The position numbers were made by a program, and so were the translations under genes. From contig DAOULA010000058.1 in the NCBI GenBank assembly GCA_034420735.1, positions 13,154-77,153 on the forward strand: a stretch of 64,000 bases of DNA, written 5' to 3'. Shown here one piece after another: positions 4,470-20,059 of this stretch. This DNA comes from Dehalococcoidia bacterium. Its GTDB lineage: Bacteria > Chloroflexota > Dehalococcoidia > Lucifugimonadales > CAJWER01. The notes beneath the pieces were generated by a model. It was not told the origin of the DNA. It did not search any database and worked only from the letters and a program-made list of their open reading frames with translations. Every line of letters begins with the position of its first letter. Within the stretch, counting starts at the first letter, position 1.

Positions 4470-4541
4470 TCCGGCCTCCCTTAGCTTGGCCCTGTGGCCC
4501 TCGCCTGATAAACTGCGCCGGAACTTGCAGGGAGGTCCGAC

Positions 4542-5423
4542 TTGGCCCGAATCCACGTGCTTGGCGCAGGCACACCCACTCCGACGCCCACCCGCTTCGG
4601 CTCGTCCTACGTAGTCGAGGTTGCCGGCGAGCAGGTCATGGTCGACTGCGGCCCCGCCGCGACGCACAAGATGGTCAAGGCAGGGCTCTGGCCCACCGAT
4701 ATCGACTACCTCTTCTTCACACACCACCACTTCGACCACGACGTCGACTATCCCTGTTTCCTGCTGTGCCGGTGGGACCAGAGCGTCGGCAGGGAGAACC
4801 GGCTCCAGGTCTACGGGCCTCCGCCCACCGAGAAGTTCACCGACGACCTCCTGAGGGAAGACGGCGGGCTCTTCGCACACGACTGGAAGACCCGCGTGGA
4901 GAACCCGGACAGCCAGCAGCTTCACCAGAATCGCGGCGGCACCCTCCCCCGAAAACCGCCGGACGTTTTCGCGAAGGACATCGCGCCCGGCAAGGTCTTC
5001 TCAGGCGATGGCTGGGAGGTCACGGCCGCTGAGGCCGAGCACGTGCAGCCTTACCTCGACTCCCTGGCGTATCGCATCGACAGCGACGAGGGCAGCATGG
5101 TCTTCACCGGCGATACGCAGCCGTGCGAGTCGGTCGTCGAGCTGGCGCGGGGCGCGGACATCATGCTCTGCATGTGCTGGGACGACCAGGAGACGATGGA
5201 GCGCAACGGCGAGGCGCACCGCCAGTGCGGCACGACCGGGGCTGCCCGCATGGCACAGGAGGCCGGGGTCGGTGCGCTCGCCCTGGTCCACATAGGGCCC
5301 AACCTCTCGCGGCACGGGCCCATGGAGAAGGGACTGGGCGACGTGTGCGCCGTCTACGACGGCAAGGTCATATTCACCGACGAGCTGCTCGCCATCGACG
5401 TCGAGCCCAGCTCGCAAGCCTGA
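4542..5423 (+). CDS. MBL-fold metallo-hydrolase, tandem paralog 1
   Basis: It has the HHHFDHD (HxHxDH) metal motif. The TTG start follows GGGAGG. It is the most divergent of the three tandem copies. Confidence 0.85.
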   Translation: MARIHVLGAGTPTPTPTRFGSSYVVEVAGEQVMVDCGPAATHKMVKAGLWPTDIDYLFFTHHHFDHDVDYPCFLLCRWDQSVGRENRLQVYGPPPTEKFTDDLLREDGGLFAHDWKTRVENPDSQQLHQNRGGTLPRKPPDVFAKDIAPGKVFSGDGWEVTAAEAEHVQPYLDSLAYRIDSDEGSMVFTGDTQPCESVVELARGADIMLCMCWDDQETMERNGEAHRQCGTTGAARMAQEAGVGALALVHIGPNLSRHGPMEKGLGDVCAVYDGKVIFTDELLAIDVEPSSQA

Positions 5424-5441
5424 GTCAAGGAGTCTGACGGC

Positions 5442-6302
5442 ATGGCGCGAATTCACATCCTCGGCGCGGGTACGCCCACACCGACGGCCGAGCGTTTCGG
5501 CTCCTCTTTCGTCGCGGAGGTTGGCGGCGAGAAGATCATGGTCGACTGCGGCCCGGCCGCCACCCACAAGCTCGTGCAGGCCGGCCTCTGGCCGACCGAG
5601 ATCGACTACGTATTCTTCACCCACCACCACTTCGACCACGACGTCGACTTCCCGTGCTTCCTGCTGTGCCGGTGGGACCAGAGCATCGGCAAGGAGAACA
5701 CGCTGCAGGTCTTCGGGCCGACGCTGACGGAGCATCTCACCCACGGAATCATCGGCGAGGACGGCGTATTCGCCCACGACTGGAAGGCGCGCGTGAGCCA
5801 TCCCGCCAGCCAGCAGGTCCACGTGAACCGGGGCGGCACCCTCCCGCGCAGGCCGCCGGAGGTACTGGCGAAGGACGTGGGGCCCGGCAAGTTGTTCTCG
5901 GGCAGCGACTGGGAGATGACCGGGGCCCCGGCGGTGCACGCCCAGCCGTGGCTGGACTCCCTCGCATACCGGATAGACAGCGACGAGGGCAGCATCGTCT
6001 TCACCGGCGACACCGAGCCGTGCGATTCGGTGATCGACCTCGCCCGGGACGCTGACGTGATGTTCTGCATGTGCTGGGACGACGAGGAGTCCATGGAGGA
6101 GAACCAGGAGACCCACGGGGTCTGTGGGACGATGGGCGCTGCCCGCATGGCGCAGGAGGCCGGTGTGAAGAAGCTCGTGCTCGCACACCTCGGCCCGAAC
6201 CTCACCCGGCATCCTGTCATGGAGAAGGGCATCGGCGACGTGAAGAGCCGCTACGATGGCGACCTCGTATTCGCCGAAGAGCTGCTGGTCTTGGACGTGT
6301 GA
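5442..6302 (+). CDS. MBL-fold metallo-hydrolase, tandem paralog 2
   Basis: It has the HHHFDHD motif. The ATG follows AAGGAG. It is nearly identical to paralog 3. Confidence 0.9.
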   Translation: MARIHILGAGTPTPTAERFGSSFVAEVGGEKIMVDCGPAATHKLVQAGLWPTEIDYVFFTHHHFDHDVDFPCFLLCRWDQSIGKENTLQVFGPTLTEHLTHGIIGEDGVFAHDWKARVSHPASQQVHVNRGGTLPRRPPEVLAKDVGPGKLFSGSDWEMTGAPAVHAQPWLDSLAYRIDSDEGSIVFTGDTEPCDSVIDLARDADVMFCMCWDDEESMEENQETHGVCGTMGAARMAQEAGVKKLVLAHLGPNLTRHPVMEKGIGDVKSRYDGDLVFAEELLVLDV

Positions 6303-6341
6303 GTGCCGGTCGCACCCACTGCAGGAGAGGAGCCTGACGGC

Positions 6342-7202
6342 ATGGCGCGAGTGCACATCCTGGGTGCGGGTACGCCCACGCCGACCGCCGAGCGCTTCGG
6401 CTCCTCCTTCGTGGTCGAGGTCGCCGGCGAGAAGATCATGGTCGACTGCGGCCCAGCCACGACCTATAAGCTGGTCAAGGCCGGTCTGTGGCCCACCGAG
6501 ATCGACTACGTATTCTTCACCCACCACCACTTCGACCACGACGTGGACTTCCCGTGCTTCCTCCTCTGCCGCTGGGACCAGAGCATCGGCAAGGAGAACA
6601 CGCTGCAGGTCTTCGGTCCGACGCTGACGGAGCATCTCACCCACGGCATCATCGGCGAGGATGGCGTATTCGCCCACGACTGGAAGGCGCGCGTGGATCA
6701 TCCAACCGGTCAGCGCGTCCACGTGAACCGGGGCGGCACCCTCCCGCGCAAGCCGCCGGAGGTACTGGCGAAGGACGTGGGGCCCGGCAAGCTGTTCTCG
6801 GGCCGCGACTGGGAGATGACCGGAGCCCCGGCGGTGCACGCCCAGCCGTGGCTGGACTCCCTTGCATACCGGATCGACAGCGACGAGGGCAGCATCGTCT
6901 TCACAGGCGACACCGAGCCGTGCGACTCGGTGATCGAGCTCGCCCGGGACGCCGACGTCATGTTCTGCATGTGCTGGGACGACGAGGAGTCCATGGAGGA
7001 GAACCAGGAGACCTACGGGGTCTGTGGGACGATGGGCGCTGCCCGCATGGCCCAGGAGGCCGGGGTGAAGAAGCTCGTCCTGGCACATCTGGGCCCGAAC
7101 CTCGCCCGCCACCCTGTCATGGAGAAGGGCATAGGCGACGTGAAGAGCCGCTACGAGGGCGACCTGGTATTCGCAGACGAACTGCTGGTAGTGGACGTGT
7201 AA
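6342..7202 (+). CDS. MBL-fold metallo-hydrolase, tandem paralog 3
   Basis: The track ORF starts at 6303. The ATG at 6342 (MARVHILGAG) aligns with the paralog 2 start and follows GGAGAGGAG. Confidence 0.9.
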   Translation: MARVHILGAGTPTPTAERFGSSFVVEVAGEKIMVDCGPATTYKLVKAGLWPTEIDYVFFTHHHFDHDVDFPCFLLCRWDQSIGKENTLQVFGPTLTEHLTHGIIGEDGVFAHDWKARVDHPTGQRVHVNRGGTLPRKPPEVLAKDVGPGKLFSGRDWEMTGAPAVHAQPWLDSLAYRIDSDEGSIVFTGDTEPCDSVIELARDADVMFCMCWDDEESMEENQETYGVCGTMGAARMAQEAGVKKLVLAHLGPNLARHPVMEKGIGDVKSRYEGDLVFADELLVVDV

Positions 7203-12337: not shown

Positions 12338-13684
12338 ATGCCCATGTACAAGCGATTGCTCGCGCTCGAAGAGGAAGAGATGCCCCTCCGCGTGGCCGTC
12401 GTCGGCTGCGGCCGGTTCGGGTCGATGGTGGCCGCGCAGGTGCTGCGCGCGCCGGGGATGGACCTCTCGGTCGTGTGCGACCTCGACGTCGAGCGCGGTC
12501 TCGAGGTCCTGCGCCTCTCTGGACGCGATCCTGCTGACGCAACAGTGACCTCGAAGGTCGGCGAGGCGAACGACGCGATTGCTGCTGGGGGCATCGTCGT
12601 CACCGGCGACCCGGGAGTAGCAGTCCACTCTGAGGTCGACGTCGTGGTGGAGGCGACCGGCAACCCCGACGCGGGCTCACGCCATATCTACGAGGCGATC
12701 ATGGACGACCGGCACGTCGTCAACGTCACCGTCGAGGCCGACGTGCTCGTGGGCCACCTGCTGAAGAGCATGGCCGACAAGGCGGGCGTGGTCTACAGCC
12801 TCGTCTACGGTGACCAGCCCGGCAACATCGACGAGCTGTACGACTGGGCGGTCAGCACAGGCTTCGAGGTCGTGGCGGCGGGCAAGGGCACGCGGTACCT
12901 GCCCGAGTTCCGTATGGGCAGGCCGGAAGAGGCACTGACCCGCTACGGCCTCACGGACGAGGAGGCCGCCGAGTCCGACCTGAACCCCCAGATGTACAAC
13001 TCCTTCCAGGACGGCACCAAGTCCGCCATCGAGATGTGCGCCGTCGCGAACATGACCGGCCTGGTGCCCGACGTCCCCGGCATGCACCAGCCTCCGGCGG
13101 GCATCGAGGAGATCCCCCAGGTTCTCCGGCCCATCGAGGACGGCGGCATCCTGCACCGGAAGGGCGTCGTCGAGGTCGTGAGCTGCATCGGCGAGGGCGG
13201 CGTCGACGTGCCGAACCCGATGCGATGGGGCGTATACGTCGTCATAACCTCGGACAGCCCTTACCTGCTGGGCTGCCTCAGGGACTACGGCGTGGCGATG
13301 GACTCCACGGGCAAGTACGCGCTGATGTACCGCCCCTACCACCTCGTGGGGATGGAGGCGCCGATCTCCATCGCCAGGGCGGCCCTCTACGGCGAGCCGA
13401 CGGGCGCGCCCGAGTCTATGGTCGGCGAGGTTGCGGCGACGGCCAAGCGCGCCCTGGAGCCGGGCGACGTTCTCGACGGCGAGGGAGGCAGCCTGGTCTA
13501 CGGCTCACTGGTCGAGGCGGAGTACGCGAGGCAGCGGGACCTGCTGCCCATCGGCCTGTCGGACAAGGCCCGGGTCACAAGCCCGGTCGCGCCGGACGCC
13601 ACGCTGACGATGGCCGACGTGGACCTGCCGCCCGACACCTTCGTAGCCCACCTCCGCAAGGTCCAGGACGCCACGCTGGGGTGA
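12338..13684 (+). CDS. NAD(P)-binding oxidoreductase with C-terminal SAF domain (COG4091, homoserine-dehydrogenase-like)
   Basis: It has the Rossmann motif VAVVGCGRFG and a C-terminal SAF-like segment (EPGDVLDGEGGSLVYG). The start follows AAGGAG. Confidence 0.7.
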   Translation: MPMYKRLLALEEEEMPLRVAVVGCGRFGSMVAAQVLRAPGMDLSVVCDLDVERGLEVLRLSGRDPADATVTSKVGEANDAIAAGGIVVTGDPGVAVHSEVDVVVEATGNPDAGSRHIYEAIMDDRHVVNVTVEADVLVGHLLKSMADKAGVVYSLVYGDQPGNIDELYDWAVSTGFEVVAAGKGTRYLPEFRMGRPEEALTRYGLTDEEAAESDLNPQMYNSFQDGTKSAIEMCAVANMTGLVPDVPGMHQPPAGIEEIPQVLRPIEDGGILHRKGVVEVVSCIGEGGVDVPNPMRWGVYVVITSDSPYLLGCLRDYGVAMDSTGKYALMYRPYHLVGMEAPISIARAALYGEPTGAPESMVGEVAATAKRALEPGDVLDGEGGSLVYGSLVEAEYARQRDLLPIGLSDKARVTSPVAPDATLTMADVDLPPDTFVAHLRKVQDATLG

Positions 13685-13779
13685 GTCCAATAGCGTTTGA
13701 CAGGGATGAGGTAAGGTCTAGATGGCGGGCGCTCAGGCACACTATAATCCCAAACACGGAAGACTGAGGTAATTCGCTG

Positions 13780-14970
13780 TTGTCCACGACTACGGTCGAA
13801 GTCAAGCCCGAGATCCTCGTATGGGCGCGCGAAACGGCGGGGCTCGAGCCGGAGGATGCGGTCAAGAGACTCGGCATCCGCGACGCACGGGGGACGGCTG
13901 CCCTGGACCGGTTGACTGCGCTTGAGACGGGTCAAGCTGCGCCTACCCGGCCTATGCTCGTCAAGATGGCAAAGCAGTACCGTCGTCCACTCTTGGCCTT
14001 CTATCTTTCCGAACCGCCCAAGTCCGCTAGCCGGGGCGCCGACTTTCGAACCTTGCCTGCGGGATACTCGGACTCGCAGGCAGCGCAGATAGATGCGCTT
14101 GTTCGGGATCTGTATACCCGCCAGAGCATGGTACGTGCCGTGTTGGAGGACGAGGACGAGGCGGAAGTAGTCGCGTTCGTGGGCTCCGCAGAGATGTCTG
14201 ACGGAAAGCCCGCTGTTCTCAAGTCCCTGCGCAGCCTGTTGGATCTAGACCCAGAAACATACTACCGTCAGCCGAATGTAGAAGCGGCCTTCAAGCTCTT
14301 GCGGGATAGGGCTGGACGCCTGGGCGTGTTCGTCCTGTTGAAGGGCGACCTGGGAAGCTACCACACCGCAATGGATGCGGACGTATTCCGAGGGTTTGCG
14401 CTGGCCGACCCGGTGGCGCCGTTCATCGTCATCAACGATAGGGACTCTCGCGCCGCCTGGTCGTTCACACTCCTTCATGAGATGGTGCACCTCATATTGG
14501 GCCAAACAGGCATCGACGGTGCCAAGGTAGGCACGGATGTAGAACGCTTTTGCAACGATGTTGCCGGAGAGTTTCTGCTACCGGGGGCTGAGCTCGACGC
14601 GCTCGAAATCCCAACTAGCGCAGACCTGGAGGCAAGACAGCGGCTAATTGGCAACTTCGCTCAAGAACGCAACTTGAGCCGAACGATGGTCGCGTATAGC
14701 GCATACCGCCAATCTCTTATGGGACGCGATGAGTTCGAAGCCCTATCCGAAGTCTTCCGCCAGCAGTGGACGCAGCAGCGTCAGCCCACGCAGCGGCAGG
14801 AGGGTGGGCCAAGCTACTACACGCTTCGCCGGCATCGCATTGGGGATGAGCTCATCGGACTTGTACGCCGGACGATGGCCTCCCGCGCCCTCTCGCCGTC
14901 TAGGGCAGCCCGCATCCTTGGTGTTGCCCCGACTCAGGTCTACAGGCTGCTTGAGTCCGACATGGCATAG
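13780..14970 (+). CDS. HTH (XRE-like) + ImmA/IrrE family zinc metallopeptidase
   Basis: TTG start 9 nt after GAGGT. It has an N-terminal HTH-like region and the HEMVH (HExxH) motif in TLLHEMVHLILG. G+C is lower than in the neighbours. Confidence 0.8.
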   Translation: MSTTTVEVKPEILVWARETAGLEPEDAVKRLGIRDARGTAALDRLTALETGQAAPTRPMLVKMAKQYRRPLLAFYLSEPPKSASRGADFRTLPAGYSDSQAAQIDALVRDLYTRQSMVRAVLEDEDEAEVVAFVGSAEMSDGKPAVLKSLRSLLDLDPETYYRQPNVEAAFKLLRDRAGRLGVFVLLKGDLGSYHTAMDADVFRGFALADPVAPFIVINDRDSRAAWSFTLLHEMVHLILGQTGIDGAKVGTDVERFCNDVAGEFLLPGAELDALEIPTSADLEARQRLIGNFAQERNLSRTMVAYSAYRQSLMGRDEFEALSEVFRQQWTQQRQPTQRQEGGPSYYTLRRHRIGDELIGLVRRTMASRALSPSRAARILGVAPTQVYRLLESDMA

Positions 14971-14979
14971 GGCTCTCAG

Positions 14980-15462
14980 TTGCTATATCTGCTTGACGCG
15001 AACGTGCTAATCGACGCAAGAAGAGACTACTATCCGCCCGACAGGGTGCCTCAGTTCTGGCAGTGGCTGGTTGACATGGGCACGCGGGGCCAGATCAGGG
15101 TTCCCAAGGAGATATTCGACGACATCGCGAGAGGCAAAGATGAACTGGTAGATTGGCTGAGACTGAACAGACACACTCTGGTACTGGACGAGTACGCCCC
15201 TAGGGACCTGGTGGCCTACGTAACAGAACGAGGCTATGCCGATGACTTGGCCGATGACGAAATTGAAAAGATCGGCAGTGACGCATTCCTCATTGCGCAA
15301 GGGCTCGTCGATATAGGGAACCGCTGCGTTGTAACGACAGAGTCTTCCAAGCCAACTTCAACCAGAGCGAATCGGCGCATACCAGACGTTTGCCAGGATC
15401 TTCACGTGGAATGCATCGATACGTTCAAACTAATCCGGAGGCTGGATTTCCGCATTAGCTAG
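14980..15462 (+). CDS. DUF4411 family PIN-like protein (putative nuclease/toxin partner of ImmA/IrrE)
   Basis: The N-terminus MLYLLDANVLIDARRDYYPPDRVPQFWQWL and the C-terminal segment RIPDVCQDLHVECIDTFKLIRRL fit the DUF4411 pattern. The start lies 9 nt after the stop of the upstream gene. Confidence 0.75.
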   Translation: MLYLLDANVLIDARRDYYPPDRVPQFWQWLVDMGTRGQIRVPKEIFDDIARGKDELVDWLRLNRHTLVLDEYAPRDLVAYVTERGYADDLADDEIEKIGSDAFLIAQGLVDIGNRCVVTTESSKPTSTRANRRIPDVCQDLHVECIDTFKLIRRLDFRIS

Positions 15463-15516
15463 AGTACGTCCACGATGGCTGCCATTCGTACGATGCTCCG
15501 GTAGCGTTCGTTAGGC

Positions 15517-18285
15517 CTACTCCAAATCGCCCCAGTTGGCGCCTGTCTTTACGTCAACCTCTAGGGGCACCGCCAGGGTCATGGCGGCGGGCATGATCTC
15601 GTCGACCAGGCCCTTCAGCTCGTCCAGCTCGTCCTGGGGCGACTCGAATATCAGCTCGTCGTGCACCTGCAGGATCATCAGCGACCGGAGCTCGCGCCCG
15701 TCCATCTCGGCCTGCAGGCGCACCATCGCCAGCTTCAGGATGTCGGCCGCGGTCCCCTGGATGGGCATGTTGATGGCCATGCGCTCGCCCGCCGAGCGCT
15801 GGTGGAAGTTGGGCGAGCGAATCTCCGGGATGTAGCGCCGCCTCCCCTTCAGTGTCTCCACGTAGCCGTCTTCCTTAACGCTGCGCTTGATCCCGTCGAT
15901 GTAGCTCTCTATCCCCGGGTACTTGCCGAAGTAGGCGTCGATGAACGCCTTGCCCTCGTCCGGCGTCAGCCCTGTCTGCTGGCTCATCCCGAACGGGCTC
16001 AGGCCGTATATCACGCCGAAGTTCATGATCTTGGCGATGCGCCGCATCTCAGGGTCCACCTCGTCTATGCCCACCCCGTACACCGACGACGCCGTCGCCG
16101 CGTGGATGTCCTGCCCGCTCTCGAACGCATCGATCAGGCCCTCGTCCATGGACAGCTCCGCCAGGATGCGCAGCTCGATCTGCGAGTAGTCCGCCGCCAG
16201 CAGCGTCCACCCGGGGTCCTGTGCTATGAAGGCCTGGCGCACCTCGCGCCCCATCTCCGTGCGGATCGGGATGTTCTGCACGTTCGGGTCGTTGCTCGAA
16301 ACGCGCCCCGTCGCCGACCCGGTCTGGTGGTACATCGTGTGGACGCGCCCCGTCTCCGGGTTCACCTGCCCGGGCAGCGAGTCCAGGTAGGTCGACTTGA
16401 TCTTGGTAAGCTGCCGGTACTCCAGCACCCTGTCCAGCACCTCGACGGCCACCGGGTTGACGTCGTCCACAACACCCCTGTTGATCTCCTGCCTGAGCCA
16501 CTCGAGAGACTGTGCGTCGGTGGCGTACCCTGTCTTCCTCTTCTTGGTGGGCGGCAGCCTCAGCTCATCGAACAGCACGTCCCCAAGCTGGCGCGACGAG
16601 CCGATGTTGAACTCGTGGCCCACCAGCTCGTACATCCCCGCCTCGGTCCGCTCTATGTCCCGCTCGAACCGGTTGGACATGGCCGTCAGGTGGTCCACGT
16701 CCACCGCAACACCGTTGCGCTGCATCCGGACCAGCACTGGGATGAGCGGCATCTCGAACTCGGCCAGGGAGCCCGCGACCCCCTTCTCGGCGGTCTCTTT
16801 CGCGAGCGTGTCCCTGAGCTGCCAGGTAGCGTCGGCCCGGCCGCACGCGTGGCCGGACGCGTCCCCGATGGTCGCCTCCGCCATCGTGATCTGCTTCCTG
16901 CCAGTGCCGGTGATGTCCGTGACCGGCTTGAGCTCGATGTCCAGCGACTCCAGCGCCAGCGCCTCGATGCCCACGGCCTTGCGGCCGCCCACATGCGCCG
17001 CGATCATCGGGTCGAAGTCGACGTTGCGCACCGTGACCCCGTGCCGGGCCAGCACCGTCATGCCGTGGTTGGCGTCGTGTGCCGACTTGGGTATCGACTC
17101 GTCTTCCAGCACGCCCCGGACAGCGTCCAGCGCCGCTTCGAGCCCGACCTGCTCGCCCTCCGCGTGTCCGACAGGCACGTACCAGGCGGCGTTCGCCTCG
17201 TTCGAGAAGGCCATGCCCACCAGCTCGCCGTACATGGGATTCATGGCCGTCGAGACCACCTCGAAGGCGAACCCGCCGGGCGAGTTAAGGGCCTCCGCCA
17301 TCTCGCGCAGGCCCTCGGAGGTGTCGACCACCGCGTACCGCGTGTCCCGCTCCTCGGGCTCCGGGAAGAGCTGGGCCTGCGCAGGTTCCCCGTCGCCCTG
17401 CGGGTCCGGGATCCGCGGCACGATGCTGAAGAACTCCAGCTCCTTCAGCTTCTCCAGCACCTCGGCGCGGTCGTAGTTCCACATCCGCATCCCGTCCATG
17501 TCCAGGTCTAGGTCCAGGTTGCGCACGATCGTCGTCAGGAACTTGCCGCGCCGCAGCTCCTCCACGTGGTCGCGTATGCTCTGCTGGGTCCTCGGCGGCT
17601 TGACCTCGTCCAGCCGCTCGATGATCCCCTCGACCGACCCGAACTGCGTCAGCAGCTTGATGGCCGTCTTGGCCCCCACGCCCGGCACGCCGGGTATGTT
17701 GTCCGTCGTGTCGCCCTGCAGCGCCTTGATGTCGGCGACCACCTCCGGGCCGAGCCCGTCGTACCGCTCCTTCACCTTCGCCACGTCGTACATCGTCGTG
17801 CGCTGCACGCTGTAGCTGAGCAGCACCCGCACCCGGTCCGACACCAGCTGGAGCTCGTCCGTGTCGCCCGTCAGCACCACCGTGTCGACGCCCTGCTCCT
17901 CGGCCTTCGCGCACAGCGTCCCCAGCACGTCGTCTGCCTCGTACCCCTCCCGCTCGAGCACGGGTATCCGGAACGCGTGCATGATCTCGCGCACCCGCTC
18001 GACCTGCTGCCGGAGCTCCGGCGGCATGGGCGGGCGCGTGGCCTTGTACTCGTCGTACTCGGCGTGCCTGAAGGTAGGGCCCGACAGGTCGAAGGCGATG
18101 GCGCAGTGCGTGGGCTCCAGGTCCGACAGGTTGCGCAGGAAGGTGTTGAGGAAGCCGTAAACGCCGCGCACCTCCTCGCCGGTCGTCCTGACCGTCATGG
18201 GGTTCTGGATGGCGTAGAAGGCCCTGTACACCATCGCGTGCCCGTCGAGCAGCACCAGCAGCGGCTTGTCGGCCGAACGTGTCAT
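15517..18285 (-). CDS. polA: DNA polymerase I
   Basis: 922 aa. It has a 5'-nuclease domain, a 3'-5' exonuclease-like domain and family A polymerase motifs (DYSQIELR, QVHDE). Confidence 0.97.
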   Translation of the reverse strand: MTRSADKPLLVLLDGHAMVYRAFYAIQNPMTVRTTGEEVRGVYGFLNTFLRNLSDLEPTHCAIAFDLSGPTFRHAEYDEYKATRPPMPPELRQQVERVREIMHAFRIPVLEREGYEADDVLGTLCAKAEEQGVDTVVLTGDTDELQLVSDRVRVLLSYSVQRTTMYDVAKVKERYDGLGPEVVADIKALQGDTTDNIPGVPGVGAKTAIKLLTQFGSVEGIIERLDEVKPPRTQQSIRDHVEELRRGKFLTTIVRNLDLDLDMDGMRMWNYDRAEVLEKLKELEFFSIVPRIPDPQGDGEPAQAQLFPEPEERDTRYAVVDTSEGLREMAEALNSPGGFAFEVVSTAMNPMYGELVGMAFSNEANAAWYVPVGHAEGEQVGLEAALDAVRGVLEDESIPKSAHDANHGMTVLARHGVTVRNVDFDPMIAAHVGGRKAVGIEALALESLDIELKPVTDITGTGRKQITMAEATIGDASGHACGRADATWQLRDTLAKETAEKGVAGSLAEFEMPLIPVLVRMQRNGVAVDVDHLTAMSNRFERDIERTEAGMYELVGHEFNIGSSRQLGDVLFDELRLPPTKKRKTGYATDAQSLEWLRQEINRGVVDDVNPVAVEVLDRVLEYRQLTKIKSTYLDSLPGQVNPETGRVHTMYHQTGSATGRVSSNDPNVQNIPIRTEMGREVRQAFIAQDPGWTLLAADYSQIELRILAELSMDEGLIDAFESGQDIHAATASSVYGVGIDEVDPEMRRIAKIMNFGVIYGLSPFGMSQQTGLTPDEGKAFIDAYFGKYPGIESYIDGIKRSVKEDGYVETLKGRRRYIPEIRSPNFHQRSAGERMAINMPIQGTAADILKLAMVRLQAEMDGRELRSLMILQVHDELIFESPQDELDELKGLVDEIMPAAMTLAVPLEVDVKTGANWGDLE

Positions 18286-19413
18286 CTACCCGGCCCCCTG
18301 CTCTCGCCCCGATTCGCCCACGCCGTTCGAGGAGGCGTGGGCAACGCTGCCGTTCACGCCACCTGGCCCTTCGATGGGCGGGTTCGTGAAGTGCAGCAGG
18401 TACTCGAAGGTCGTGCCCATGGTGATGTAGTTACTCGGCCAGCCGAAGATGCCGACCCGGTTCACGATGTTGGTGCGGTCCCAGATTATTGTGTTGCGGA
18501 ACTCGTAGCCCGCCTTCCTGAGGGCCTCGACGACCGATATGTGGATCGTGACGCGCTCGCCCTCCCACCACATGTCCGGCACGTTCACCACGCAGTGGCC
18601 CCCCGGCTTCAGGACCTTCCGAATACCGCCGAAGATGGAGCGCATGGCCTCAGAGTACTCGTCTAGCGGCATGGTGCCCAGGTCGCGAGGGTCCTGGGAG
18701 TACTGCTCGACTGCCCCCAGCTGCTCGTTCTTGCGGTCGCGGCGCGACTTGTTCCGCCTCTGCCTGTTCAGCAGGTTCGCGTACGGCGGCGACGTCAGCA
18801 CCAGCGACACGCTGCCGGGCTCCAGGTACTCGGCAACGCTGGATGCGTCGTCCTGCACGGCCACTTGGGCAGTGCTCGTAAACAGCCCCGCGCCTCCAAG
18901 CCGGGACTCCGAGAGGTCGACGTACCCGGCGTGAAGGTCGAAGCCCACGGCGTTGCGATTCGTGTCCTGGGCGGCCACGAGGGCCGTGCCGCTGCCCACG
19001 AACGGGTCGAGCACCAGCTCGCCCTCGTGGGTGAACAGCTCGATCACCTTAGTCGCCAGGGAGATGGGGAAGGTCGCGGGGTGCAGCTTCTTGTCGCGGA
19101 TGTCCCGGCCCTGGTAGTTGAACTGCCACACGCCTAGCTGGCTCTTCAGCCACTCCTTGGCCGTCAGGCAGTTCAGGTGGTTGGGCTTGCACTCGCACAG
19201 CCGCCCGCCGCCGATAGGCAGGCGCGTCCGGTATAGACCGCTGCCATCCCTGACCGCACGCGGCAGCCCTTGGCTCGCCAGCGTCTCGGCAGCCCCATCT
19301 GAGGCACCGGTCGCCCGCCCGTCCGTTATGGTGTCGCCCATGGGGTTCCCATCCTGCTTCAGGTGCATTGTATACCCAAGCCCGCCGCCCGCGCCCTTGC
19401 TGGACTCCGGCAT
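18286..19413 (-). CDS. DNA methyltransferase (N6-adenine or N4-cytosine type), no cognate nuclease nearby
   Basis: The SAM-binding motif DPFVGSGT is followed by the catalytic SPPY motif. The start is taken at MPESSKG (19413), and the track ORF extension to 19782 does not look like protein. The stop TAG directly abuts the polA ATG. Confidence 0.8.
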   Translation of the reverse strand: MPESSKGAGGGLGYTMHLKQDGNPMGDTITDGRATGASDGAAETLASQGLPRAVRDGSGLYRTRLPIGGGRLCECKPNHLNCLTAKEWLKSQLGVWQFNYQGRDIRDKKLHPATFPISLATKVIELFTHEGELVLDPFVGSGTALVAAQDTNRNAVGFDLHAGYVDLSESRLGGAGLFTSTAQVAVQDDASSVAEYLEPGSVSLVLTSPPYANLLNRQRRNKSRRDRKNEQLGAVEQYSQDPRDLGTMPLDEYSEAMRSIFGGIRKVLKPGGHCVVNVPDMWWEGERVTIHISVVEALRKAGYEFRNTIIWDRTNIVNRVGIFGWPSNYITMGTTFEYLLHFTNPPIEGPGGVNGSVAHASSNGVGESGREQGAG

Positions 19414-19724
19414 CTCAACTACCCAACTGCCCCTTGACAAGCATAGCACATTCGTACTACTATAGTCTCGGTAGGAAGGGGAGAAGATGAGCCCGAGCCC
19501 CTCCGGGTCCGCTCGCCGTCGGGATGGAGCGGGCCCGTGGTGTTTACAAAGCGCCTTCGAGGTCAAGCACGGCAACTCGTCCGGAGCCGTAACTGTAGCG
19601 TCTACCCCCTTTCCGGGTGCGGGTATATCCGTATTGCCGTCGCACACCCTTTGGCTGAGCAGCAAGGTCACTGGGTCTGCGGAAATTGTTGATAGAGGGC
19701 GGCGAACTGCCGCCGCTTCAGAGA

Positions 19725-19852
19725 CCGGAGCGCGTCTCCCAGGGATCCGTTGACTATCGCAGTGTGTGATCAAACCGCCCACTCAAAGTGGGCACGGTCG
19801 AACATTCCGGCTCCGCGAGGCAGCGGGCCAACCTGACAGAGACGCGCTCCGG
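19725..19852. repeat. 14-bp perfect inverted repeat closing a 100-nt loop inside a non-coding spacer
   Basis: ccggagcgcgtctc (19725-19738) and gagacgcgctccgg (19839-19852) are perfect complements. The loop contains the hairpin GCCCAC-tcaaa-GTGGGC (19777-19793). Confidence 0.6.
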
Positions 19853-20059
19853 CCCCATCGAAAGAAGAACCGAGAGTACCGACAGAAAAGACGAAGCTAG
19901 GTAGAGGCGAGACACAAGGAGAAGCTGGCGAGACGAGATACAATCGAATATAGCCTGGTGATCGGTGGCCCCGCAGGCCTCCGGCGCTGATATCTGGCCT
20001 GGACGTCGCTTGCGTCCTGTGCCGGATAAAGACGGGCAGGAGGTGAGGGCAGCGTGCCG

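Follow-up and report, generated by a model that had tools for sequence, protein, structure and literature searches.

A VapBC52-like pair of HTH-peptidase and DUF4411 genes, probably a toxin-antitoxin cassette, at a variable site beside polA in Dehalococcoidia

The stretch of DNA analysed here (the window, 64,000 nt, contig DAOULA010000058.1) is part of a 165-kb metagenome scaffold from a Dehalococcoidia bacterium. Between an oxidoreductase gene and polA it carries a pair of genes, the first encoding a protein with a helix-turn-helix (HTH) domain and an IrrE-type zinc peptidase of the Peptidase_M78 family, and the second encoding a PIN-like protein of the DUF4411 family (Table 1). The neighbours of the pair are mfd, a DRL-type oxidoreductase gene, polA, a methyltransferase gene, pgm and metK, and the locus lies outside any defence island. 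The pair had been picked out from the DNA letters alone as a horizontally acquired conflict module in a low-GC islet (the original prediction). That reading placed the two + strand genes 9 nt apart, and the gap is exactly 9 nt; the two peptides it quoted, TLLHEMVHLILG and MLYLLDANVLID, are present. The second protein, however, does not end at ...HVECID, since 13 residues more, TFKLIRRLDFRIS, precede the stop at 15462.

Table 1. Features of the islet, with positions counted from the first nucleotide of the window
Feature	Coordinates	Strand	Remarks
Putative upstream control region	13685..13779	+	-10-like box ACTATAATC 13741-13749; ribosome-binding site GAGGTA 13767-13772
Predicted antitoxin gene (gene 1, VapB52-like, 396 aa)	13780..14970	+	TTG start; Pfam and PDB 9VZY_A match
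9-nt spacer, antitoxin stop to toxin start	14971..14979	+	Gap recurs in unrelated contexts
Predicted toxin gene (gene 2, VapC52-like DUF4411 PIN, 160 aa)	14980..15462	+	TTG start; Pfam and PDB match
Downstream spacer, toxin stop to polA stop (convergent gene ends)	15463..15516		Right edge of islet

The start codons of both genes are supported because in relatives the corresponding alignment columns also hold ATG, GTG or TTG, preceded by a conserved GAGGTA. For gene 1, GAGGT is found nine bases upstream of the TTG codon, and the frame cannot extend further upstream, as no start codon lies between the preceding stop and 13780. Both ACTATAATC and GAGGTA are kept in the window and in four related loci (L006, L007, L049 and L050) while the intergenic DNA around them diverges, and the conserved region that holds ACTATAATC may act as a promoter. 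The 9-nt spacer suggests an operon organisation and possibly a translational coupling of the two genes. Neither a further copy nor a paralogue of the pair occurs elsewhere in the window. No tRNA gene was found in the 64 kb, no Rfam match was obtained anywhere in the window at gathering thresholds, and the gene list contains no integrase or transposase within +/-10 kb of the pair, which agrees with the earlier statement that neither integrase nor tRNA is nearby.

The base composition of the islet is clearly distinct from that of its surroundings. The segment 13685-15516 has a G+C content of 0.584 against a window mean of 0.656 (standard deviation 0.022, windows of 1832 nt), and it is the lowest such stretch in the 64 kb, as expected from the low-GC islet initially described; the hand counts of 31/60, 30/60 and 44/60 given with that description proved exact. 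The G+C content at third codon positions (GC3) is 0.70 for gene 1 and 0.63 for gene 2, against 0.89-0.94 in mfd, the oxidoreductase gene, polA, the methyltransferase gene and pgm. This low GC3 places the composition anomaly of the pair in codon usage and not in amino acid content.

Gene 1 matched the Pfam Peptidase_M78 model with an E of 1.7e-9 (38 bits for a curated cut-off of 22) and gene 2 matched DUF4411 (PF14367) with an E of 2.2e-36 (125.5 bits for a cut-off of 23.5), from position 1 to 158 of the 159 positions of the profile; profile hidden Markov model (HMM) searches thus confirmed the two families originally proposed. HTH models matched gene 1 weakly, below their cut-offs, at both ends of the protein, and NCBIfam gave a sub-threshold match only, to the spr1629 antitoxin family (E 0.004). 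The sole PDB sequence match of the gene 1 protein is chain A of 9VZY, whether it is searched with phmmer (E 3.7e-17, residues 9-393 aligned with 3-386) or with its family profile (E 2.9e-28, 4-394 aligned with 2-387). The gene 2 protein matched 9VZY_D and 9VZZ (E 2e-7, or 1.8e-8 with the family profile) and no other PDB sequence. The 9VZY entry is the complex of Mycobacterium tuberculosis VapB52 and VapC52 (Rv2515c/Rv2514c), described structurally and mechanistically in a paper of June 2026 (PMC13273310).

The predicted antitoxin is composed of an XRE-type HTH domain (residues ~10-75), a disordered linker that contains D88-F89-R90, an IrrE/M78 zinc-peptidase and helical middle domain, and a four-helix C-terminal domain (~346-392). 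Its zinc site, H233-E234-xx-H237 with E255, aligns with H216, H220 and E245 of VapB52, and D88-F89-R90 aligns with the DFR of VapB52 that holds the FR motif, the proposed site of self-cleavage. In order to measure conservation, each of the two proteins was aligned with its 120 closest database clusters and with the VapBC52 chain (122 sequences). In this alignment F89, R90, E234, E255 and C258 are present in 122/122 antitoxin sequences and H233 and H237 in 121/122, and all seven residues are invariant in a separate alignment of 50 antitoxin sequences. The AF2 model of the protein has a mean predicted local distance difference test (pLDDT) score of 83.7, and residues 83-89, which score <50, form its only long low-confidence linker, the one carrying the FR motif. 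The order of the domains in this model agrees with the plan reported for VapB52. Using Foldseek, the middle domain was found to resemble IrrE (3DTI) and PprI bound to single-stranded DNA (ssDNA; 8SLN), and the N-terminal domain the HTHs of ImmR, DdrO and C.Csp231I.

The predicted toxin contains the acidic active-site residues D6, E44, D101, E121 and D136, aligned with those of VapC52. D101 and E121 are found in 122/122 sequences, E44 in 121/122, D136 in 119/122, and D6 in all of the 115 sequences that cover the N-terminus. Its AF2 model (pLDDT 92.9) has PIN structures as top Foldseek matches, namely the HARP RNase P 7OG5 and the VapC entries 3H87, 6A7V and 4CHG. For both proteins, the Foldseek matches are to distant PIN or IrrE structures with E of 5e-3 to 1e-2 and a probability of ~1, and the structural likeness to VapBC52 itself rests on the sequence alignment.

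Altogether, we consider it highly probable that the pair is a type II toxin-antitoxin (TA) or abortive-infection-type cassette of the VapBC52 family, which associates an HTH-M78 peptidase with a DUF4411.1 PIN protein. This assignment is based on homology along the whole length of both proteins, on the folds predicted for them, on conserved motifs for catalysis and cleavage, on purifying selection, and on the variable and compositionally foreign character of the cassette. The families and the variable presence therefore also support the idea of a two-gene conflict module of foreign composition that had been put forward at first. By analogy with VapBC52, the gene 2 product would be a Mg2+-dependent PIN ribonuclease able to cut tRNAs and arrest growth. 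The antitoxin would hold it in check by clamping the toxin dimer with its N-terminal HTH domain and by blocking the active site with its C-terminal four-helix domain. A stress signal, which for VapB52 is ssDNA produced by DNA damage or phage replication, would switch on the antitoxin's own IrrE-type zinc peptidase, and the active peptidase would then cut the antitoxin at the F89-R90 linker motif, so that the N-terminal domain is released and the toxin freed. For the pair itself, we infer the toxicity, the neutralisation, the ssDNA trigger, the self-cleavage, the tRNA targets and any role in phage defence.

This proposal relies on work on the mycobacterial system, in which the toxicity of the Rv2514c/Rv2515c pair and its rescue were shown in 2019 (PMC6504116). 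VapBC52 forms a 1:2 complex and cleaves tRNA, and its ssDNA-induced self-cleavage is lost in an H216A/H220A mutant (PMC13273310). The peptidase of VapB52 cuts its own N-terminal toxin-binding domain at the FR motif (PMC13273310). Since this motif is invariant here, the cleavage of a partner repressor in the manner of ImmA/IrrE, as suggested in the original prediction, appears as a poorer model than self-cleavage. The HTH-DUF955-DUF4411.1 arrangement was described in 2017 as a predicted three-component TA system (Matelska et al., PMC5499597), and Xre-COG2856 systems had been reported earlier (Makarova et al. 2009, PMC2701414). Describing such pairs as little tested or under-characterised is thus out of date after the studies of 2017, 2019 and 2026 (PMC5499597, PMC6504116, PMC13273310; PDB 9VZY): the pair circulates horizontally, its family was predicted, then validated, then explained mechanistically, and the kind of system is not new.

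We then compared the site with that of related genomes. Related loci were fetched through the neighbouring oxidoreductase, and the slot was defined as the DNA from the oxidoreductase stop to the polA stop. The pair occupies this slot in five genomes (the window, L006, L007, L049 and L050). The slot is empty, with 11-27 nt, in L002 and L005, the latter being the closest relative of the window (Mfd 96.7% identical). When these two empty sites are aligned to the window, homology resumes at the polA stop codon and the junctions are clean. In three other genomes the slot is filled by a minus-strand HicA/HicB-like cassette (L001:11345-11974, L003:11345-11870 and L004:11342-11870), whose HicA scores above the cut-off of Pfam (E 1.9e-10 and 1e-7) and whose HicB-like partner falls below threshold; this cassette is also GC-poor (~0.59). 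The slot of the more distant L008 contains an unrelated LLM-type oxidoreductase gene. Because its content varies between the pair, the HicA/HicB-like cassette and nothing, the slot can be regarded as a cassette-swap site. Comparison of synteny, as had been suggested, therefore reveals a variable slot, and the relatives do not all carry the pair there with native G+C. Signs of an integrative mobile element were also looked for: there is no integrase or transposase within +/-10 kb and no tRNA target in the window, and a scan of the promoter region for repeats gave nothing significant.

The cassette proteins are 71-87% identical among the five carriers, against 85-97% for the flanking proteins. 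The ratio of nonsynonymous to synonymous substitution rates (dN/dS) is 0.08-0.16 over both cassette genes, similar to that of a housekeeping neighbour, with values of 0.11-0.15 for the antitoxin and 0.08-0.16 for the toxin, at a synonymous divergence (dS) of 0.5-1.2. In all five carriers the cassette has a GC3 of 0.63-0.76 and its flanks 0.86-0.95, and no amelioration of its G+C is seen among the five syntenic copies at this dS. A recent single insertion was rejected, given that five genomes share the slot and the conserved upstream region at a dS of 0.5-1.2, and the acquisition of the cassette was probably not recent. An old insertion with later losses and a single replacement gives the simplest history; repeated exchange of alleles is an alternative history compatible with these data.

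The same two-gene unit is found elsewhere in unrelated neighbourhoods (L044-L048), with the antitoxin gene first, as in all contexts examined, and a gap of 9-10 nt, and in L051 and L052 the two genes overlap slightly, as called. The spacer is exactly 9 nt both in metagenome-assembled genomes of Chloroflexota (L044 and L046, 5992-6000) and on a Rhizobium plasmid (L053, 3992-4000), the proteins being just ~50-60% identical. Relatives of the pair are carried by 46 plasmids, of which 25 are conjugative. Among them the Rhizobium conjugative plasmid pR132503 has the pair annotated as 'XRE family transcriptional regulator' and 'DUF4411 family protein'. A search of 50,697 phage records returned two weak matches (~29% identity). 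Homologues of the antitoxin with 56-57% identity come, by their annotation, from Geminicoccaceae, an alphaproteobacterial family, which indicates transfer between phyla. Whatever the host, with a G+C of 0.57-0.68, the cassette keeps a G+C of ~0.54-0.60 (about 0.57) and its antitoxin a GC3 of 0.62-0.69 (window, L044, L046, L047, L049, L050, L051 and L053). In one unrelated genome the pair is adjoined by a second, shorter HTH_3 and Peptidase_M78 gene of 364 amino acids (L047:7157-8251 and L048:7157-8251) and by a Peptidase_S24 repressor-like gene; this region is full of small unannotated open reading frames (ORFs), suggesting a prophage or island context there.

Several observations weigh against the assignment to the VapBC52 family or against the mechanism proposed from it. 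Both proteins are distant in sequence from those of the characterised pair, the antitoxin being 24% and the toxin 29% identical, and the substrate and the trigger may therefore differ. The cysteine switch of VapB52, C229, is not conserved: D246 takes its place here, the subfamily has G, S or D at this position, and the VapB52 switch loop carries a 7-residue insertion that makes the loop of our protein 7 residues shorter. No PADLOC model matched gene 2 at E<=0.01. Consensus scans of 13400-15800 detected neither a full sigma-70 promoter nor a terminator-like site. Operator-like inverted repeats were sought in the DNA preceding gene 1 (window, L006 and L007) and were absent, this search giving short two-copy direct repeats alone, probably due to chance. 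Finally, phage protection was obtained with VapBC52 only upon overexpression of the toxin, and co-expressed toxin and antitoxin gave none against phage D29 (PMC13273310), so that defence is at most a putative native role even of VapBC52.

The antitoxin belongs to a large and unusually conserved subfamily of proteins of ~400 amino acids from several phyla, with 54-87% identity among the 120 closest clusters, and the cysteine-switch loop describes VapB52 and need not define the family. Other gates can be envisaged for this subfamily: examples are C258, invariant and next to the Glu ligand, and the sensing of metal or redox state that has been proposed for IrrE. We put forward only tentatively, and consider rather unlikely as a whole, the joint proposal that the subfamily is gated otherwise than by ssDNA-released Cys autoinhibition and that alleles are still being replaced at this recombinase-free swap site; such ongoing replacement is suggested by the fact that the cassette G+C (~0.57) stays unameliorated across species.

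Concerning function, one explanation could be that the pair is an anti-phage system of the RosmerTA type in the strict sense, with a phage-sensing peptidase-antitoxin, population-level immunity given by the native operon, and defence as the selected function in place of addiction or stress response. PADLOC RmrA models do match gene 1 (E 1.5e-9 to 1e-3), as does capP (E 1.3e-3), in NetFlax the node of ImmA/Rosmer antitoxins is connected with PIN-like toxins, and one RosmerTA system has been shown to be defensive (PMC10440598); moreover, defence genes, like TA genes, are typically present in some genomes only and swapped as cassettes at a single site. However, the RmrA matches are weak and partial, the best one reaching 35.5 bits, and neither RmrT nor any other PADLOC model recognises gene 2, so that the adjacent RmrA and RmrT models by which PADLOC defines RosmerTA are not both found. 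In addition, the cassette sits among mfd, oxidoreductase, polA, pgm and metK genes and not in a defence island, the phage records hold only the two weak matches to it, and the lack of D29 protection by co-expressed VapBC52 also argues against it. We thus regard this explanation as possible but doubtful.

The pair could also be a purely selfish addiction cassette, maintained by post-segregational killing alone, in which the peptidase would be vestigial and no signal would trigger activation. Its repeated loss or replacement among close relatives, the G+C that it keeps whatever the host and its relatives on plasmids, many of them conjugative, would fit such behaviour. Nevertheless, the FR motif and the zinc ligands vary little or not at all over 122 sequences at 54-87% identity and dN/dS is about 0.1, from which it follows that the peptidase is not vestigial, making this explanation improbable. 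Lastly, an ImmA/ImmR- or IrrE/DdrO-type switch, in which cleavage of a separate repressor turns on a mobile element or DNA-damage regulon and DUF4411 is a regulated effector and not a toxin, finds an echo in the middle domain, structurally nearest to IrrE and PprI including the ssDNA-bound 8SLN, and in the location between two DNA-repair genes (mfd and polA), but it is very improbable because the separate repressor is absent, the XRE HTH being fused to the peptidase with no repressor gene adjacent, and also in view of the lack of any integrase or other mobile-element gene within +/-10 kb, of the homologue's partner being a proven toxin neutralised by the HTH-peptidase (PMC6504116), and of the pair's occurrence in unrelated neighbourhoods elsewhere while close relatives have mfd and polA without it, which makes the link to repair genes look coincidental. 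For the same two reasons of context, a functional meaning of the mfd and polA flanks was rejected. The VapBC52-type TA or abortive-infection cassette therefore stands as our preferred interpretation of the pair.

Other features of the window were noted. A type II N4/N6 DNA methyltransferase gene (18286-19413, - strand) abuts the start of polA with zero gap; it matches Pfam N6_N4_Mtase (E 2.4e-29) and PADLOC MTase_II (E 4e-134) and most of the close relatives have it too. As no gene for a restriction enzyme was noticed next to it, it probably encodes an orphan methyltransferase, co-oriented with polA. The 646 nt between this gene and pgm (19414-20059, GC about 0.60) hold no gene in the calls of the collection (L042) and have neither a blastn match in ten related loci nor an Rfam match. 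They contain a promoter-like site, TTGACA-17 nt-TACTAT, and an ORF of 88 amino acids (19487-19753, +) behind a purine-rich stretch. Further upstream, three tandem paralogous genes of the metallo-beta-lactamase fold (~4540-7200, L042:763-3423), encoding 286-293 amino acids each and matching Pfam Lactamase_B and Anti-Pycsar_Apyc1, precede the phosphoribosyltransferase (PRTase), Vut_1 and mfd genes.

Although the pair reveals no new kind of system, it would mean that the system of self-cleaving protease-antitoxin and PIN tRNase recently characterised in M. tuberculosis also exists in uncultured Dehalococcoidia (Chloroflexota). As its antitoxin belongs to the larger, more conserved subfamily without cysteine switch, it offers a test point for the generality of the ssDNA/cysteine-switch model. 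The locus is also a natural example of recombinase-free turnover of TA cassettes (VapBC52-like, HicAB-like or empty) between convergent housekeeping genes, and the swap site could help to study how such cassettes move.

When compared with known systems, the pair shares with CapP/CapH (CBASS), IrrE/DdrO (Deinococcus) and ImmA/ImmR (ICEBs1) the M78/IrrE fold, the HExxH+E site and an XRE-type HTH substrate, and CapP and PprI are activated by ssDNA, as is VapB52. Those proteases, however, cleave a separate repressor and thereby de-repress genes, whereas gene 1 joins the HTH substrate domain and the protease in a single protein, with the release of a toxin as the predicted output; this protein also lacks the CapP-type Cys switch. 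RosmerTA (Millman et al. 2022; NetFlax node D25, PMC10440598) has in common with it an HTH and ImmA/M78 antitoxin with a swappable toxin, as reflected by the weak RmrA HMM matches, but those matches are partial, gene 2 has no RmrT match in PADLOC, and the gene order of RosmerTA is variable and often toxin-first. More broadly, the pair belongs with the TA and defence systems of the 'Rosmer' zone, whose antitoxins are ImmA peptidases. It shows no material difference from the HTH-DUF955(COG2856)-DUF4411.1 class, defined from genomic context alone, in which a fused HTH and DUF955 gene lies upstream of a DUF4411.1 gene. Finally, the nearest characterised relative, VapBC52, differs by a 23-residue N-terminal extension absent here, by its C229 cysteine switch and a loop 7 residues longer, and by its host, an actinobacterial pathogen and not an uncultured marine or environmental Dehalococcoidia bacterium. 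The two systems nonetheless have the same antitoxin-first order, the same collinear layout of N-terminal domain, IrrE peptidase with helical region and four-helix C-terminal domain, the same HExxH+E zinc site, FR linker motif and conserved Cys three residues past the Glu ligand, and a DUF4411 PIN toxin with matching acidic residues including D6.

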